A stretch of 64,000 nt of DNA from Octopus vulgaris (lineage: Eukaryota), in assembly GCA_951406725.2 (NCBI GenBank), contig OX597834.1, forward strand, positions 682,001-746,000. The letters run 5' to 3'. Of the stretch, positions 1,810-42,529 are shown in pieces. Made by a program: the position numbers and the translations under genes. Within the stretch, counting starts at the first letter, position 1. Each line of letters begins with the position of its first letter. The notes below the pieces were generated by a model, which worked only from the letters and a program-made list of their open reading frames with translations, made no database searches and was not told the origin of the DNA.

Positions 1810-1810
<1 letters not shown>

Positions 1811-2309
1811 TAATTGTTATCGCCATATTAATATGGCATTCTTATAGATATAAGAATGCCATATTAATATGGCGATAACAATTAATTTCCAGTAAACGCT
1901 GCCGTAATCTCTTTTATAGAGACTTAGTAATTTTAATATTTCTATTATTGAAAACAAGTGGATGTATTCCACTGAAACTAGGTAAATAGAAACCTTCGAA
2001 CAGAGACGTCAGTGGCGACACCTGCGGGGTCTGACTGCGCTACATTGACAAGGGGCAATACCCCGAAACGCGTCTGTAGCTGTCGGACTGGCAGTGTGAA
2101 GCGGCTGACCTCCCTTGTTCGAAGGTTATAATGGATACAGATCGTGTATCAATAGCTATCTTAAGGCGGTGGCCTCTTGGAGCTGACCAGCGGCAGCGAT
2201 TATTCTTATATCTATAAGAATGCCATATTAATATGGCGATAACAATTAATTTCCAGTAAACGCTGCCATAATCTCTTTTATAGAGACTTAGTAATTTTAA
2301 TATTTCTAT
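1810..2309 (+). mobile_element. Non-coding hammerhead-containing element (retrozyme/Penelope pLTR-like), 364-bp unit
   Basis: Direct repeat 1849-1945 = 2213-2309; inverted fragment ~1810-1857; HHR at 2039-2080; inserted in (AAT)n; homologue at 20675-21242. Confidence 0.85.
2039..2080 (+). ncRNA. Type I hammerhead ribozyme, U3:A8 core variant
   Basis: GCTACA-TTGACAA-GGGG caata CCCC-GAAA-CGCG-TC-TGTAGC: helix I, core, helix II, GAAA, palindromic helix III, GUC cleavage triplet. Confidence 0.9.
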
Positions 2310-7802: not shown

Positions 7803-8683
7803 CATGGTCGCAGCTCTGAGCTGAAAAAAATAAAAATATATATATATATATATATAAATACAGAATCGGACAAAAACGCAAAACTTTCAAATAGACGATA
7901 CAAAAAACGGACGGGTCATTCGAAGCCTCTAATCTTCAGTCAAGAACCGGATCATCCTCGCAATTTCGGCGAGGTAAAACTAAGCTACGGGCATTAGATT
8001 TCTTGGAAAAGGATCGAATGTATACGAAACAAGGACAGAAAAAAGGGACGATGTTACACGAATATAGATAAAAAACAAACAAAAAATAATACGAATATAA
8101 ATACAAAAAACAATAATAATAATAACAGGACAAAAACCACAGGCGTCTTTTTACTTTAGACAGTTCAACTTAACTGGCGTATTTCAAAAATAATGCCTTA
8201 CGGCATGTTGTCGATGTTGTCGTGACGCTGGTCAGCAACCGAAAGGCTATAGTTGACCGGCGGTCACGTGAGAAGAGAAGAGAGAGAAAAAAGAGGCAAA
8301 GGAATTAAAGAGAGGGAGAAGAGAGAGAAAAAGAGGGACAAAGGTATTAAGGAGGAGGGAGATGAGAGAGAAAGAAGGAATTAAGGAGGGGGGAGAAAGA
8401 GAGCGTGCCAAGGATTGGCGGGACAAAAGAAAGGCAAAGTAAGAAAGGCAGAGATATGTGAGAGAGTGGGGAAAGAGGAGACCAAAAAGAGGCGAGAAAA
8501 GAGAAAGAGAAAGACAGAGACAAGTGAAGTACAAATTAAGAAAGACAGAGAAACTGTGTGTAGAAGTCGTACAGAGTTTAGTGGAATGCTTACATACAAG
8601 GTGTACGTACGCCGCAATAATATATGATTGATTGATTCTAGTTTCAGCTCACGAGCTCTGGCCATGCTGGGGCACCGCCATAT

Positions 8684-10189
8684 ATGTATAAAAATATATA
8701 TAAAAATACAATATATATATATATAAGGGACGACTTAGATATGCTCAATCACCTACCGAATACTATAAACAAAAGCACCATACTGGTATCCTTCGATGTA
8801 GTCAACCTCTACTCCAATATCCCCCACAACCTAGGACTAGAGGCAATTCAATTCTGGCTAGAGAATCACGCCAACGAACTACCACACCGCATCAAAAACG
8901 AATTTGTGATAGAAGGGGTTAAATTCATCCTGGAAAATAACTTCTTCGCCTTCAATGACAACTTCTACCGACAAAAATCGGAGACTGCGATGGGTACACG
9001 AATGGCCCCCTCCTTTGCCAACCTAGTCATAGGATACCTAGAGATCAGTCTGTATCGTAAGGTTCTAGAAAGATATGGCAGCCCTTTCTCCATCTACATA
9101 GAAAACAACTGGAAGAGATATCTAGATGACTGTTTCATCCTTTGGCATAAAAATATAGAAAAACTCATAGAATTCCAGGAAATTTTAAACGGACTGGACG
9201 TAAACATCCAATTCACGATGGAATATAGCCAGCAACAACTCCCCTTCCTCGATATCCTCATTAAGAAAGCTAATAATATAATAGAAACAGACATATACTA
9301 TAAGCCTACAGACTCTAAGCAATATCTTCCATTCAATTCATGCCACCCCAGACACACCAGGATGAATATCCCCTTCAATCTAGCAAAAAGGATATGCACT
9401 ATAGTCTCTAACGCAAACACCAGAGACACACGACTACAAGAACTAAAAGATACCCTTATCACCAGGAACTATCCACCTTCACTTATTGACAAGTGCATTC
9501 AACGTGCCCTTCAACTTAACATCAAGGAACTGAGACATCCCAAATCAAAGAAAAACTTACAACCAAAAGCCTTACCATACATCTCCACACACAACCCTCT
9601 CAATAACGAAGCCTTCGGCACCATCCTCCACAACATACCCCTCCTAAAAAAAGACCACAGAATGAACACAATCCTCCAAACACACACGATCATAAAAAGC
9701 AAAAGACAGCCTAGATCCATGAAAAGTCTCCTAACACAAGCCCGAATTCACTCTTCAACACAGAAGCCGACAGTAAAAAAATGTGGAAGACCCAATTGTG
9801 GGATATGCGACTATCTAATTGAGGGATCAGAGTTCTCCTTCAAACAGGGACAACGGTTTACAGTGAAAAGCAACTTCACATGTGCTTCGGAGAACCTAAT
9901 ATACTCCCTAACCTGCTCCGGGTGTCAAGAGCAGTACATAGGCCAAACAAAAAATGGTTTGCGTAAACGAATGGCCCTGCACAGATCCCAGATAAAAATT
10001 CCCCAAAACAGAAAAATAGCTTTTAGCCAACACATAGATACTTGCGCCAACAAAAAAACACCAAACTTCAGGATTTTCCCCCTCTACCAATTTAGGGACG
10101 ATACAACCTCGAGACAACGAATAATTAAAGAAAATCTCTTTATTACAAAATACAAGCCACTTCTTAACGGGTCTACGACAAACAATTAA
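8684..10189 (+). CDS. Penelope-like element reverse transcriptase + GIY-YIG endonuclease (5'-truncated; real homology starts ~8723), probably Neptune-type
   Basis: SFDVVNLYSNIP, TAMGTRMAPSFANL, WKRYLDDCF, YKPTDSKQYL..SCHP, Cys linker CGRPNCGIC, NLIYSLTCSGCQEQYIGQT..LRKRMALH..KENLFI..KPLLN. Confidence 0.95.
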   Translation: MYKNIYKNTIYIYIRDDLDMLNHLPNTINKSTILVSFDVVNLYSNIPHNLGLEAIQFWLENHANELPHRIKNEFVIEGVKFILENNFFAFNDNFYRQKSETAMGTRMAPSFANLVIGYLEISLYRKVLERYGSPFSIYIENNWKRYLDDCFILWHKNIEKLIEFQEILNGLDVNIQFTMEYSQQQLPFLDILIKKANNIIETDIYYKPTDSKQYLPFNSCHPRHTRMNIPFNLAKRICTIVSNANTRDTRLQELKDTLITRNYPPSLIDKCIQRALQLNIKELRHPKSKKNLQPKALPYISTHNPLNNEAFGTILHNIPLLKKDHRMNTILQTHTIIKSKRQPRSMKSLLTQARIHSSTQKPTVKKCGRPNCGICDYLIEGSEFSFKQGQRFTVKSNFTCASENLIYSLTCSGCQEQYIGQTKNGLRKRMALHRSQIKIPQNRKIAFSQHIDTCANKKTPNFRIFPLYQFRDDTTSRQRIIKENLFITKYKPLLNGSTTNN

Positions 10190-10289
10190 TATACCTCAAC
10201 TTTAGAATAAAAGAAATATATACACACACAAATATTACACTCCATAGAATCCATTACTAATCAGCCCCATCACAGCTATACTTTCACCC

Positions 10290-10490
10290 ATTCATATTCT
10301 CCCTTCTCTGTTTTTTTCTTCTTCTTCTTCTTCCTCTTCTTCTTCATCATCATCATTATCATCATCATCGTCGTCATCATCATCACCACCATCATCACCA
10401 TCATCTTCTCCTTCTCCTTCTTCTTCTTCTTCTTCTTCATCATCATCATCATCAACATCGTCATCTTCTTCTTCTTCTTCTACTTCTCCA
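10290..10490. repeat. (TTC)n/(TCA)n compound microsatellite
   Basis: Direct reading. Confidence 0.9.
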
Positions 10491-10825
10491 CCTTCCACCC
10501 CTTAACCTTGTCACTAATGTCTTTCAGTATAACGCCTACGCAAATTCCATAAACAATTCCTGAATTGAACTGCGACTACTGTCAGCCACTGACCATTCAA
10601 AATACGACCATCAAGGCATTCCCAGATTTCCCCACCCCCTCTCCACATCAGCTTCCTTATTCTTCACCTACCCTACCAAGAACTCAAAACGACCTCGAAC
10701 ACACAAGTGCAAACAAGGGAGTCAGAGAAAGGCAGAATGCTACTTATATCTGAACACTACTATAGAAATATTCTTTTAAAAAAACTTTTCTTCTAATTTT
10801 TCTAAATTTAATTATTTAATCGTTA

Positions 10826-10863
10826 CAGTTGAAAAGGTCTCAAAATGACCGAAACCGGTACTG
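10826..10863 (+). ncRNA. Minimal type I hammerhead ribozyme (U3:A8) in putative Penelope pseudo-LTR
   Basis: CAG-TTGAAAA-GGTC tcaaaat GACC-GAAA-CCGG-TA-CTG; helix I extends aatcgtta/aaagatt; ~640 nt downstream of the Penelope stop, same strand. Confidence 0.85.
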
Positions 10864-10993
10864 AAAGATTCACTATAAAATTATCTTAGCATTTTCTATT
10901 TTTGACTTGTTTTTTCATATATATATATATATGCACCTACACCTTGTTCACTTATATGTATGTAAACATTCCACCAAACTCTGTACGACTTCT

Positions 10994-11045: not shown

Positions 11046-12915
11046 CCTTAAATCCTTAAAAATATTTCAGCCCGAAGGCTGCGGCCATGCTGGGGCACCA
11101 CCGCTGAATGAGCTACACCAATATGTGAATCCACCTCTGATACGTGGTACTTGGTCAACAAGGGAGTTCGATGCCGCTGTCCGCATCTGTGTCTCCTGAC
11201 GTGAGGTAGGTTCATCTGGGCCCCCTGACAAGAAGAGATCCAGTTTAGTTTTAAAGAAACCCACATCCACACCATGCAAGTCTCTCAGGAATTTAGTGAG
11301 CATGTTAAAGAGCTGTTGTCCTCTGAAACCCAAGCTGTTGCAGTATCTGGTCCTGTATTTTGATGGTGATGTTGGAATCTTTGGCACCATGCAGTGGCGC
11401 CCCGTTCTGCGGTTGGGGTAACTTTGAATGCCAAAGTTTGGGACAAGACCCTCCAGGATTTTCCAGATGTATATCACCGCATATCTCTCCCGCCTTCGCT
11501 CTAGGGAGAAGAGTTTTAATGCTTTCAGTCTTCCCTAGTAGCTGATATGTTGCATTGAGACGATCTTCTTTGTGTAGCTTCTTTGAATTGCTTCGAGTTC
11601 TGCTGTTAGTTTTATATTGTGTGGTGACCATAGTTGGGAGCAGTAGTCCAAGTGGCTGAGGACGAAAGTTTTCCACAGGACCATCAGTGTCTCTTTCTCT
11701 CTTGTTCTGAAAGTTCGGAGAATCCATCCAGCTAGCCGTCTGCATTTTATCACCAAATTTGTAATATGCACTTGGAAAGATGCATCATTGCTCATGTCAA
11801 TTCCCAGGTCACGCACTGATTTTGACTCAGAGATTGCAATTCTTCCCGGGCCAGTGTATCCAGTCTGCATGTCGTTTACCTTTGTGTGCCGGAAACGCAG
11901 GGCCTGGAACATACCTGCATTAAACTGCATGTTGTTGTCCTCAGCCCACCTGTATATTGTATCCAACTCCTGTTGCAGAAGTGCAATATTTCCAGGGTTT
12001 TGTATTGCGTGGGAGACTTTTGTGTTATCTGCATAGCTAGCAAGGGTGGCCATCTTAGCAACTGAGGACATGTCTGAAAGGGCCACTATGAACAGCAGTG
12101 GTCCCAAGACAGTACCCTGTGGATCACCACTTGTTATTTGTGTTTCCTTGGAGGTGGCTCCATTGGTCACAACTGCCTGCCTTCTATCTTTTAGGAAGTT
12201 GTGCAGCCACTCTCCAAGTTTTCCGCCTATACCGAGACCACGCAGTTTGTGACAAATCATACCGTGGTCGACTTTATCAAAGGCTTTTGCAAAGTCGAGA
12301 TATATCACATCCACATTTGAGCCATTTAATAGCTGTTTTAACACCCAGTCATAGTGTTGCAGGAGCTGTGTTAGGCAGCTTCTACCGGGTCGAAATCCAT
12401 GCTGGGTGTCAGACAGCAAGTCATTGTCTTCAAAGAATATGATTAGTTTCTTGCGGACTATTCGTTCCATGACTTTGCTGATGTGTGAGGTCAGAGAGGT
12501 AGGCCTATAATTTTTAGCATCTGCTCTGCTTCCTCCCTTATGGATAGGGCATATTACCCCCTCTTTCAATTTGACTGGGAGCTTACCACTTGCAAGAAAG
12601 CTCTGAAAAAGAAGCTGTAGCGGTTTTGCAAGGGCTCGTTTGCACGATTTGAGAAGGATCGCTGGAAATCCATCAGGTCCAGCAGCTGAGTTTGTGTCAA
12701 TCACATCTATGGCGAGTATGATATCATCATCTTCAATGTTGATGTACTCAATTTTTGCCTCTTTGGCCGCAGGAAAAGTGGCAAAGAATTCTTCTGGGTT
12801 GTTTACTTGCCTGTGTCCTAGAGGTGTAGTGAACACACTTTGGAGTTGTTCGTTCAGTATTTCACTTATCCTCGTGGGATTTCCTGTGAGGGAGTCTTCT
12901 TTTTGGAAGAGAGGT

Positions 12916-12917
<2 letters not shown>
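11041..12917 (-). pseudogene. 5'-truncated CR1-group LINE (RT and C-terminus), disabled
   Basis: [50 protein letters not shown] instead of YADD; in-frame TAG at 11535-11537 joins the 475-aa and 136-aa ORFs; structured 3' tail at 11063-11103. Confidence 0.95.
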
Positions 12918-12963
<46 letters not shown>

Positions 12964-13281: not shown

Positions 13282-16200
13282 TCAGGATTTGGGCACCAAG
13301 GCCCATTCGAGCAGAGAGTTATTGTTTGCGGAGACATATCCGGGTGTGGATGGTTTGTCCGGTACTGTTTGAAGGAATTTGTCCAAAGACTTCTTGAATT
13401 TTGTGTGGTCAGTTTCTTTTTTGACGTGTCCTGGTGTAATGTTGAAGAGAGCGGGTCCAATTGAGGTGAAATAGTTGTACCGTATTGTCGTTATGTGATG
13501 CGATTTAGATTTTTGTTGTGGACGGATGGCACGTGGTCCAAGCCTTGGATGCATTTTGAAGGTGATGCCAACATCATTCGGACAGTGCTGATGGAATATT
13601 TTCCACATCATACAGATAATGTAGCGTTCACGGCGTCGTTGGAGTGAATACAATTTCAGCTTCTCTAGTCTACCCCAGTAGTCAAGGTCTGACATGCCAT
13701 CTATCTTTTTTGTGATTGACCTTTGGGGAGCTTCAATTCTCATAATATTTTGTTTTGTGTAGGGAGACCACAGTGGACAGCAGTATTCAAGGTGGGGTCG
13801 GGCAAAAGTGGAGAAGAGAAGGATAATAGCGTGGGAATCTCTCGACTGGAAGGTTCTGAGAATCCAGGAACACATTCTGCGGGCCATGTCAACTTTGCTG
13901 CTTATATGTGTAGCCCAGCTTATGTTGTTGTCCACTGTTACTCCCAGATCTCTGATGTTGTTGGATGCCATGAGAATTTCTCCAGAAGGAAGAGAGTATG
14001 GGAGTTTCAGAGCGTCCTCCCTTCCAAAGTGGATCAGTTCGAATTTGTCTTCATTTAGCAACATGTTATTCTTTTCCGCCCATTGGACAACAGCTAGTAG
14101 GTCTGACTGAAGGTTTATTCGGTCATCCACGCTATTGATGACCTTCTGGAGCTTGGAATCATCAGCGAAGGTTCTGATGTTGCTGTGTTTGATGGTGTCA
14201 GTAATATCATTTATGTAGATGATGAAGAGAAGTGGGCCCAACACAGTGCCTTGTGGGACACCACTGCTGACTTTGGCTGGGCTGGATTTGACTCCTTCGA
14301 CTACAACATGTTGGGTTCTGTTAGAGAGGAAGCACTTGATCCATTGCAGCAGCTTTCCAGTGACACCAATATTGGACAGCTTTCTCAGAAGGATCTTATG
14401 ATCAACCCTGTCAAAGGCCTTGCTGAAATCAAGGTAGATGACATCAGTGTTGGAACCCTCTCCCAAGGCTCTCAAAATGTCATCAAAATGATGCAGTAGC
14501 TGCGTCAGGCAATCTCTCCCATTACGGAATCCATGCTGGTTGGGGTTCAGCATATTATGACTCTCAAGGAAGTGAGTCATACGCGATCTCAGCACCCTCT
14601 CAAATACCTTGATGATATGAGAGGTGAGTGAGATTGGACGGTAATTCACGGCAAGCGATTTGTTTCCTTTTTTGAAAACTGGGACAACAGACTGGGATAG
14701 AAGGTCTTCTGGTATATATCCAGCATCCAATGAGTTCCGCCACAGATTGGCTAGAGGGGGTGCAAGTTGGTTTTGACACATCTTCAAGACACAAGCAGGG
14801 AACCTATCGGGACCTACTGCTGAATTATGCTTCATTTCCTTTATTGCTGCTAAGACATCAGGAGCGCCAAATGTTATGTCCGATAAAGTGTATTGGGGAG
14901 TAACATCACTGATACAGCCCAGATCAGTCATATCAGGATTGCTGAAAACAGAGCAATATTGTTTCTGCAATATTTCTCCCATGGTTTTGGCATTGTCTTG
15001 AAGAATACCATTTTCATCAATCAGAGGGCCAACAGTAGAACCAGTGACTCTGTGTTTTTTTGCAAATGAAAAGAACACTTTGGGATTGAGTTTGATCTTC
15101 TCAATGGCCCAGGCCTCTTCAGCTCTTCGCTGACTATTGATGATAGACATCATGTTGTTTTGGAGTTTATGTTTTTTAATCTCTAGCGACGAGATGGCAG
15201 TCAGGTTGGTGTGTTGCTGTTGACAGTATTTCAGCATGTTGATCTTTTTGTTGATTCTTTTAATTTTCCTTATGAGAGATTTTCTATTTCTAGGGATTCG
15301 ACACTTAGATTTGTTTGCAGATCTTAATGGGGTGTGTCTTGCACATATGTTCGTGATGGTGTCTACAAGTGACTGCCAGGACTTTTTGATGTTAGTGGGT
15401 GTGTATGTGTGCGTGAAGGACCAATCGACTTGTGCAAGATCATTATTGATCGCTTCCCAGTTTGCATTGTGGAAATCCATAGTGTCAAATGGATGAACAG
15501 GAGGGATGACATTTGTTTTGCATTTTGGCCAGTGAAATCTCAGATCACAGAGAACCATGTCATGGTCGGAGAGTAGGGTTTTCTCCACTGCAATATTGTG
15601 GATAGTATCAGTGTGATTGCTGAAAATTAAGTCTAAGACGTTTTTGTGACATCTCGTTGGTTCGAGTACCAGTTGGGACAAGAAGAAGTCATCCATGAAG
15701 TCAAGAAGCGATTCCACTGCCTCCCTGTCAGGGGTTGAGAGAGAAGAACCTGGCGGCAGACTGTTTGTAGACCAGTCAACCCCAGGAAGGTTGAAATCTC
15801 CCATCATTAAAATGTTGTCAGGTTGACACTGCTGAATGAAACACTTTATGCTGTTGAGGCATTCCTTGAAGCATGGTAGGGGCGTTTGGGGTGGTCTGTA
15901 GAGCCCAACTACTGTTAAGTTGTTGGTTTGACTGAATACAGCGACTGCTTCGCAGTATCCATTCGAAAATATGTTCATGGCTTCTGTTGAGAATGAATCA
16001 TGGACATAAATGGCAGTCCCACCCTTTCTTCTGCCAACACGATCAGCACGAATGGTTTTGAAATTTTTAACTTTCACCTCGGCTTCCAAGTGGAGGTCAC
16101 TAAGATGGGTTTCAGTGAGGACGAAGAAAGGGATGTGGTTTGGATGGGCCTCGACCCAGTCCTCCAGGAATCTTATCTTCCATTTTTGTGTATTGGTGGA

Positions 16201-16404
16201 AGGGCTGATGCCTTGGGCATTAAGCAGAAATGTTGAGGCGAGAGTGGATGGTTTTAATTGTTTTGGTGATTTGTTAATTTGATTGCTTTTTAATGGCATG
16301 TGTAGTGGGGTAATAGTGGTGGATGGCGGTGGGTGATAGCTCGGATGTTTTTTTCCAGTTCTTTTGCTAGATTCATTATATACATCTAGATTCATTATAT
16401 ACAT
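13282..16404 (-). CDS. CR1-group LINE ORF2: AP endonuclease + reverse transcriptase, uninterrupted
   Basis: EN motifs LLNAQG, LTETHL, GGTAIY, YRPP, GDFN, LDLIF, SDH; RT motifs [39 protein letters not shown]; true start codon uncertain. Confidence 0.97.
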
Positions 16405-20674: not shown

Positions 20675-21238
20675 TATCGCCATACATATATGGTAATCTT
20701 ATAAATATAAGACTAAAGCTGTCGATGATTAGCTCCAAGAGGCCACCGCCTCAAGCTAGCTATTTGACACACAATCTGCGTCCATTATAAACTTTCGAAC
20801 AGGGGAGGTCAGCCGCTTCATCCTGCTAGTCAGACAGCTGCAGACGCGTTTCAGGGTAGTTGCCCTTTATCAATGCAGCGTAGTCAGACCCAGCAGGTGT
20901 TGCTACTGACTGTCCCTGTTCGAAGAATCTATTTACCTAGTTTCGGTGGAATACATCCACTTGTTTTCAATAATAGAAATATTAAAATTACTAAGTCTCT
21001 CTAAAAGAGATTACGGCAGCGTCACTGGAAATTAATAGTTATCGCCATACTAGTATGGCAATCTTATAAATATAAGACTAAAGCTGTCGATGATTAACTC
21101 CAAGAGGCCACCGCCTCAAGCTAGCTATTTGACACACAATCTACGTCCATTATAAACTTTCGAAAAGCGATAACTATTAATTCCCAGTAACGCTGCCGTA
21201 ATCTCCTTTAGAGGGACTTAGTAATTTTAATATTTTAT

Positions 21239-21242
<4 letters not shown>
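20675..21242 (-). mobile_element. Non-coding hammerhead-containing element, 365-bp unit (same family as 1810-2309)
   Basis: Direct repeat 20675-20798 = 21040-21163; inverted fragment ~21167-21242; HHR at 20837-20879; abuts (TA)n. Confidence 0.85.
20837..20879 (-). ncRNA. Type I hammerhead ribozyme, U3:A8 core variant
   Basis: RC: GCTGCA-TTGATAA-AGGG caacta CCCT-GAAA-CGCG-TC-TGCAGC. Confidence 0.9.
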
Positions 21243-21331
<89 letters not shown>

Positions 21332-21446
21332 AATATATATATATTGAAGTGTGGTGGGCTATCGGCCGAGGTCAGTTGTGAAGGCAGCACTACTTGCCTT
21401 TAAGCAGGCATGATATGCTCTGTTCTCCGATATTATTGACTTCATG

Positions 21447-41530: not shown

Positions 41531-42529
41531 ATGTTTGGGTGGGCGGTTTAAATGTGTGTGTTTATATATGCATATATATCTTGTGTGTGTCTGTATACAT
41601 ATATATTATTGTTATTATATAATTTTACATTTCGTAACGCAATACCATCCGTATTTTGTCCATCAGTCAATTATAAAATATTCAGTATATGAAAATAAAA
41701 TACCAACATGACCTTAACAAAGTAAAACAGAATTTAATAAAAACTTCATTCTATCGCAGAACAATGATAAAGCTTTTAAAATGGCGTGTGGATCTGAATA
41801 AATAAAGATGAATTGCTTTTGTCTCGAAGAAAGTATTATAACGCTCATGAATACACATTTTTTTTAGGTAGATTGAGGAGTTCACAGCAGGGTTTCAATA
41901 GTAATGTATGCATTTAACAATAAATATAATATTCTGTTAACACGAACTCGAGAATTTGCGGTCATTTGTGTGGTTAGATATGGCGGCGAGATAACACAAC
42001 TTGAAAATATATGAAGAGAACGTGTTCTGCATTTGAAATTATTGGTAAAATCGATTGTTTTACAGAAAGGAAGTAACGTGTTTAACTGCTTCACATACCA
42101 GGAAATATTTTGCGTTCTGTATCGAATGCTCCCTTGACAATCGATATGTGATTGGATATCACATAGATCGATAAATATTTTGAGTTTAACTGCGATTTTT
42201 AACGATCTATTTTGTGCATTTCACTATTAATCTTTTACGCTATTACAAAGTGTGAATACTTTCTGTTTGTAAACGCGAATATGTGATATTTATTTCATAA
42301 AGTGTTAAAAAAGTTATTTTAAATTATTTTATAGAATGAGTTTCAAGAATGATTTATTTTTCACAAACGGGCGCAGATACACCATTGTGATTGAGATTTT
42401 TATTTGAGGACGAGTTTCCTCCTTCGGTGCTATTGGACAGCATACTGGACAGATTGGTCCATATCCATTGATAAAGTAATTTCTTGAAACTGAAATTTGG
42501 AAGATGTGTGCTTGCGAGTGCGTACGCGA

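Follow-up and report, generated by a model that had tools for sequence, protein, structure and literature searches.

The window analysed here is the whole stretch of 64,000 nucleotides from Octopus vulgaris (assembly GCA_951406725.2, contig OX597834.1, positions 682,001 to 746,000 of the forward strand) and contains two insertions, A and B, of a single non-coding monomer. Monomer positions are numbered M1-M364, the monomer of copy A (window 1849-2212, + strand) being the reference. The features are the following:

1810..2309, insertion A (L001, subfamily A), two head-to-head arms within an (AAT)n tract
1838..2309, + strand, long arm of A, 472 nt or 1.3 units (M354-M364, M1-364, M1-97), 3' end at site II
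1808/1810-1857, - strand, shorter, inverted arm of A (M354 to M39), ending 3' at site I
1849..2212, + strand, reference monomer, predicted structured RNA (z -8.4 linear, z -8.2 as circle)
1877..1895, + strand, site I (M29-47, peak M34-40), 104 of 212 outer 3' ends, putative reverse-transcription start
1922..1983, + strand, most conserved segment, around and downstream of site II, predicted three-way junction
1936..1954, + strand, site II (M88-106, peak M97-100), 97 of 212 outer 3' ends, putative second start
1991..2127, + strand, long rod bearing the hammerhead, 137 nt, fold z -7.8, 0 of 200 shuffles as stable
2039..2080, + strand, type I hammerhead of copy A, predicted cut after C2074 (M226)
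8642-10189, + strand, 5'-truncated Penelope with RT and GIY-YIG and a CX4CX2C linker
21167-20675, - strand, long arm of B (subfamily B1), 493 nt, M267 to M29, 3' end at site I
21167..21242, + strand, shorter, inverted arm of B (M24 to M101), ending 3' at site II against (TA)n at 21242-21344
20873 (start of core), - strand, hammerhead of copy B, predicted cut after 20843

The period is 364 bp in copy A (1838-1945 against 2202-2309, 97% identity) and 365 bp in copy B (94.5% between repeats), and the two copies share 87% identity across 406 bp. A previous sequence-only reading of this DNA had taken them for one monomer with a single hammerhead at the tip of a rod of ~140 nt and a short inverted copy at the 5' end of each insertion, and all three points were confirmed. 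The arms of A join inside a self-complementary hairpin (M354-M9), where arm joints are often found (window 1838-1857 and about 10 other loci, sampling bias being possible). The single frame longer than 110 aa overlapping copy A had no match in Pfam.

The hammerhead of copy A is composed of stem I (2039-2044/2075-2080), the core UUGACAA (2045-2051), a 4-bp stem II, GAAA at 2065-2068 and a palindromic helix III (ACGCGU). The type I assignment of the sequence-only reading stands, and its core was corrected to the U3-A8 variant in place of C3-G8. This variant is known from Schistosoma Penelope ribozymes, and a palindromic helix III is described as the mark of ribozymes cutting as dimers (PMC4209133). 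When the whole window was searched on either strand with a type I hammerhead pattern, the sites of A and B and one weak site at 42468 were identified. The predicted active fold lies 1.5 kcal/mol above the minimum free energy. Rfam, in gathering and E-value modes, did not call the hammerhead and returned only hairpin look-alikes at the inverted junction, probably because of the U3-A8 core and the minimal helix III.

Among 15 natural copies, compensatory double-sided changes were identified at 6 of 48 pairs (1 in stem II, 2 in stem I and 3 in the rod), a count that cannot be read as a probability since the sequences are related. The subfamily cores differ at N7 only, being UUGACAA in A (43/54), UUGAUAA in B (30/35) and UUGAAAA in C (140/150). 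Helix III in subfamily B2 is ACAUGU, another palindrome, in 25 of 25 units, a switch that may reflect mutation bias as both changes are CpG transitions. The compensatory pairs, the variation confined to N7 and the palindrome-keeping helix III are counted as support for a ribozyme that would be under selection, its cleavage being predicted. Two more old repeat families (L191, L192, L194 and L193, L198, L199) contain U3-A8 hammerheads with the same helix III and are unrelated to the monomer. At 10 fetched other hammerheads with this helix III, neither a monomer match nor a nearby Penelope ORF was found.

The monomer is spread over the genome. The 25-mer at M72-96 has 2,540 exact matches on many contigs of the 2.8-Gb genome (none for the reversed control), first-look searches gave 2,388 and 2,873 candidates, and the number of loci is estimated at ~1,700, given that the first 100 matches of the 25-mer fell in 68 records. 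Units are non-coding, of 362-365 bp and 41-43% GC with one type I hammerhead each, and full units sort into four subfamilies (A, B1, B2 and C) that are 5-16% apart and 2-3% divergent within, the A and B loci having been chosen by likeness to the query copies. Tandem ribozyme pairs number 366 genome-wide, and arrays reach ~10 units with a complete ribozyme in consecutive units. Arms go from a few dozen bases to ~10 units, the longest one seen being of 3,577 nt. Copying past one unit, as proposed in the sequence-only reading, is thus supported genome-wide by the tandem arrays; its description of the copies as circularly permuted and of ~1.3 units did not hold, given this range of lengths and the fixed 3' ends described below. 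The family is real: dispersed matches, young subfamilies, target duplications and the lack of an ORF mark it as young, genome-wide, mobile and non-autonomous.

Variable positions among the four subfamilies are 72 in 355 overall and only 2 in M70-140. The most conserved segment is a candidate enzyme-binding element, which would agree with the Anolis assay, where RNA lying downstream of the start sites is required (PMC11167929). Contigs of three presumed-RNA runs and an unlabelled one cover 21-26 of 30 monomer bins and are uninformative on transcription, ends or circle; one of these runs carries another organism label.

The ends were mapped in 126 distinct loci, obtained from 160 records by removing 34 (32 duplicates or overlaps and 2 outside the family). 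Arms shorter than 25 nt were ignored, and the sample is biased to long copies because similarity, a tandem pattern or a core pattern served to choose the loci. The two fixed sites, ~60 nt apart, account for 201 of 212 outer 3' ends and the other 11 lie elsewhere, unlike the 5' ends, which are variable. A and B end at different points since each uses the other of the two 3' sites (M97 and M29, respectively). The plot of starts and ends on the monomer that the sequence-only reading had suggested, run on these 126 loci, therefore bore out its freely placed starts, with scattered 5' ends, and not its freely placed ends. That reading had set its proposal against copies with fixed ends always joined to an RT ORF; the 3' ends are indeed fixed, and none of the loci examined serves as pLTR to an ORF.

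Head-to-head arms were identified in 86 of the 126 loci. Of the 76 that could be classified, 75 pair an end at site I with one at site II and the exception has both arms at site II; the remaining 10 loci are atypical or unclassifiable. The position-ordered sample (68 records, 16 of them shared with the first set) comprises 45 two-armed records, where 35 of 36 classifiable ones are I/II, one is II/II and nine are atypical. Long arrays, of up to ~10 units, use these ends as well. (TA)n adjoins 166 of 212 outer 3' ends, target duplications of 12-15 bp are readable in 9 of 126 loci, and arm joints overlap mostly by 0-6 bases. The Penelope-type signature of tail, 5' truncation, inverted partner and AT-rich target is supported genome-wide, as two fixed ends, inverted partners and (TA)n are those reported in PMC11167929 and PMC8557442; a retrozyme-like family with Penelope-type insertion, as the sequence-only reading had it, is upheld by ends, arm pairing and targets. 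Three arms end at M310-313 (L160:2440, L035:1391 and L312:2320), perhaps a minor third start or a break-prone hairpin. A 92-bp flank duplication surrounds the array of L123, and whole insertions are locally duplicated with their flanks in L269/L270 and L277/L278.

Non-LTR retrozymes were defined by Cervera and de la Pena in 2020 (PMC7229834), who showed circles in coral, mussel and axolotl and proposed them as templates and PLEs as helpers. Vertebrate retrozymes were described by Li et al. in 2026 (bioRxiv 10.64898/2026.07.22.740005) with PLE co-occurrence and pLTR trees, so that Penelope-like elements moving animal retrozymes is an idea already in print. The octopus family has every sequence-level feature of the class: a short non-coding unit (~170-400 nt in the class, ~350-390 bp in mussel), one type I hammerhead, dispersed partial monomers, short tandem arrays, a structured predicted circle and co-occurring autonomous Penelope-like elements. 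It differs in its U3-A8 core and in being known from genome sequence, with a predicted circle. In Xenopus, matches to Repbase were obtained for 24 of 57 retrozyme families, PLEs make up 21 of the 22 elements hit, and 8 of 9 dimers did not cleave (bioRxiv 10.64898/2026.07.22.740005); unlike these, no pLTR homology was found for the octopus family. Insertion ends, arm pairing and within-array haplotypes are not mapped in the accessible parts of either paper. The literature search, with subscription papers, supplements, Repbase and Dfam outside its range, turned up no cephalopod family of this kind, and the words hammerhead, retrozyme and ribozyme are absent from the main text of a 2026 octopus repeat paper.

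Among Penelope-like elements, those bearing an endonuclease (Neptune/Nematis-like by the CX4CX2C linker; PMC8557442 and PMC11167929) share with the octopus family two internal 3' ends, 5' truncation, an inverted 5'-truncated partner, partial tandems, (TA)n targets and a hammerhead with palindromic helix III. Tails, inverted partners and the (TA)n bias were described by Craig et al. (PMC8557442). According to Frangieh et al. (PMC11167929), the Penelope protein, a predicted dimer, nicks the two strands of AT-rich DNA and extends both of them; it starts inside the RNA, at two sites, and the distance between these corresponds to the genomic tail. The octopus family departs from them in having no ORF and in its tail of ~60 nt, published tails measuring 30-40 nt; its start sites lie 176-238 nt away from the cut, its stems I and II are longer, and it has the 137-nt rod. 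The RT and GIY-YIG ORF between pLTRs of autonomous PLEs was not found at the examined retrozyme loci. A similar arrangement is seen in Chlamys elements such as MRC1 (PMC8557442), also non-autonomous, of Penelope type and multicopy head-to-tail, with pLTRs as a Chlamys feature. Chlamys elements generally have 3' ends resembling those of autonomous partners and most are without hammerheads; the retrozyme does carry a ribozyme, and homology to a partner was not detected.

The template can be approached from the position of the ribozyme. Sites I and II sit ~176 and ~238 nt downstream of the predicted cut, and on a linear monomer released by cutting no arm could extend beyond that point. Of 54 arms reaching the cut, one stops at it (1.7 expected by chance) and 53 pass, and there is no pile-up of 5' ends at this position (6 of 212 against 4.1 expected). 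Unit junctions are exact in 28 of 28 cases, with no bases gained or lost and with the six bases after the cut intact behind a pattern that ends at the cut. An exponential with no upper limit fits the arm lengths (n=101 after removal of two duplicate records, mean 310, KS p = 0.20).

Arrays are homogeneous within loci. No piece out of 406 was assigned to a subfamily other than that of its locus, and opposite arms are as similar as units of one arm; in subfamily C the difference is 0.9%, against 2.4% between loci, that is ~3 times closer. In this subfamily 77 of 82 diagnostic sites are common to both arms and 30 locus-wide haplotypes were identified among 49 loci, an upper count as one variant aligns at two adjoining columns. 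Locus-private variants occur in every covering unit in 19 cases (7 of these in 3-4 units), in some units in 11 and in one unit in 348, the last being the pattern expected from post-insertion change. This haplotype homogeneity points to one monomer sequence that would have been copied repeatedly in both arms, and a circle may be the simplest source of such arrays; transcripts of homogeneous arrays or homogenisation at the DNA level can also give them. The octopus family is, in our judgement, probably a protein-free retrozyme family, whose copies a borrowed Penelope enzyme is likely to have made by reverse transcription of a circular monomer RNA of 362-365 nt.

The same Penelope machinery could have used as template a long uncut multimeric transcript of a few master arrays, a circle being then unneeded and the ribozyme of minor weight for insertion. 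Arrays of 5-10 units do exist, uncut RNA explains equally well the lack of stops at the cut, partial variant patterns are seen in some arrays (L150, L125 and L126 have variants in some units only), and the Anolis Penelope in vitro does not need the hammerhead and uses mainly uncut RNA (PMC11167929). Against it, daughters would never be longer than their parents and two ribozymes in one arm, the arrangement needed to release a monomer, were found in only 8 of 65 sampled loci; moreover, each of the 30 haplotypes fills whole arrays and both arms, which requires repeated steps from one unit to many, and the ribozyme has been kept through compensatory changes. On this balance the uncut template is considered rather unlikely.

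The resident Penelope elements are potential helpers. The window contains at 8642-10924 (+) a truncated copy of a very young Neptune-like family, Penelope family A, whose upstream ORF overlaps the RT ORF; its hammerhead is a minimal one of the U3-A8 type and its tail measures 34 nt. Two ORFs are likewise present in families E and F. Searches in the octopus genome itself identified four young families with near-identical open frames (A with 784 aa, B with 781, E with 775 and F with 811), as well as family G and the older C and D. For one resident Penelope protein, the named sequences related to it belong to bivalve-symbiont assemblies, and the SINE and microsatellite landscape suggests a mollusc host, probably an octopus. 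Two-site ends in (TA)n are 34 nt apart in A, ~29 in B, ~46 in E and 42 in F, inverted loci of these four families usually have one site per arm, and U3-A8 ribozymes with palindromic helix III were identified in A, B and F. By BLAST the monomer had no match in sampled loci of families A-G (in one of the searches, among the best 40 matches). No helper could be picked out among the Penelope families examined, since no sequence is shared with them and the spacing of 60 nt differs from their 29-46 nt, both being points against the favoured circular template with a borrowed enzyme.

Site II of Penelope family B (L339, L343 and L351) ends in CTATTAT as does that of the retrozyme, and the core letters and helix III palindrome of its ribozyme are those of subfamily B2. 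The sharing is limited to this ending of 7-9 nt and the core letters, and family G shares two short words with the monomer, likenesses that may be due to chance. That of family B could point, if weakly, to the helper or to ribozyme dimers of mixed origin.

Truncated pLTRs of an autonomous Penelope family outside those surveyed, with later local tandem expansion, would have ends, targets and ribozyme type like those described here; Xenopus retrozymes match pLTRs (bioRxiv 10.64898/2026.07.22.740005) and the survey of Penelope families in the genome is incomplete. However, upstream of the fixed ends there is more monomer and never a shared ORF or UTR, and no retrozyme was found as the pLTR of an ORF in the 126 mapped loci or in the 68 position-ordered records. 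Penelope ORF pieces lie near 11 loci (7 of the 126 and 4 of the 68) and either are separate insertions, adjoining the retrozyme within one microsatellite, or carry the retrozyme inserted in them; L160, L113, L007, L055, L308, L312 and L315 were read at the sequence level and the remaining ones judged by coordinates. This origin is thus very improbable. L160 was considered as a retrozyme-Penelope chimera, but 150 bases of another repeat between the parts make it better read as neighbouring insertions. An enzyme copying linear cut monomers, and switching from each 5' end to a new 3' end, would likewise produce arrays of one haplotype provided that one molecule were re-used, but with no excess of 5' ends at the cut and no added or lost bases at the junctions it is even harder to credit.

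Under the favoured reading of a circular monomer and a Penelope enzyme, loci with at least two hammerheads would be transcribed, their ribozymes would cut as dimers and the monomer would be closed to a circle. A Penelope RT/GIY-YIG dimer would then nick the two strands of an AT-rich target at points separated by 12-15 bp, as the end geometry suggests. Priming would be internal, from one nick at site I and from its partner at site II, a chemistry that is presumed from the observed pattern of ends. Both cDNAs would go round the same RNA to a random stop and be joined by a few matching bases, leaving head-to-head arms of 0.1-10 units, or a single arm where one strand fails. A further reading, which we hold tentatively and give somewhat less than even weight, is that an RNA circle that is no shortened version of any resident Penelope hijacks a Penelope enzyme by structural mimicry, one dimer copying the circle from two fixed sites, one per nicked strand. 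If so, the genome would record rolling-circle reverse transcription, and the origin of Penelope tails, inversions and partial tandems would be explained.

The return of retrozymes to the genome through a circle template and a Penelope helper has been a hypothesis since 2020, with co-occurrence and pLTR trees as its previous support (PMC7229834; bioRxiv 10.64898/2026.07.22.740005). New here are the insertion footprints, namely two fixed starts, a near-strict rule of one site per arm, read-through of the cut site and single-haplotype arrays. The octopus family would therewith add to the non-LTR retrozymes, bringing new footprint evidence for a Penelope-driven rolling-circle insertion in which circle and cleavage are deduced from sequence. 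It also bears on the open question of why Penelope insertions have tails and inversions. Helper, circle and dimer model are directly testable, given several intact near-identical resident Penelope ORFs and the Anolis in vitro assay.

Two tandem units of an old Penelope with a period of 4,480 present the same retrozyme insertion at the same place of the ORF in L203 (G000:C15:69226000-69235000) and L007/L008; either the unit was duplicated after insertion or it moved with its passenger. Finally, the window also contains on the - strand a LINE with an open 1040-aa APE and RT frame (13282-16404) and a separate 475-aa RT frame (11535-12962).
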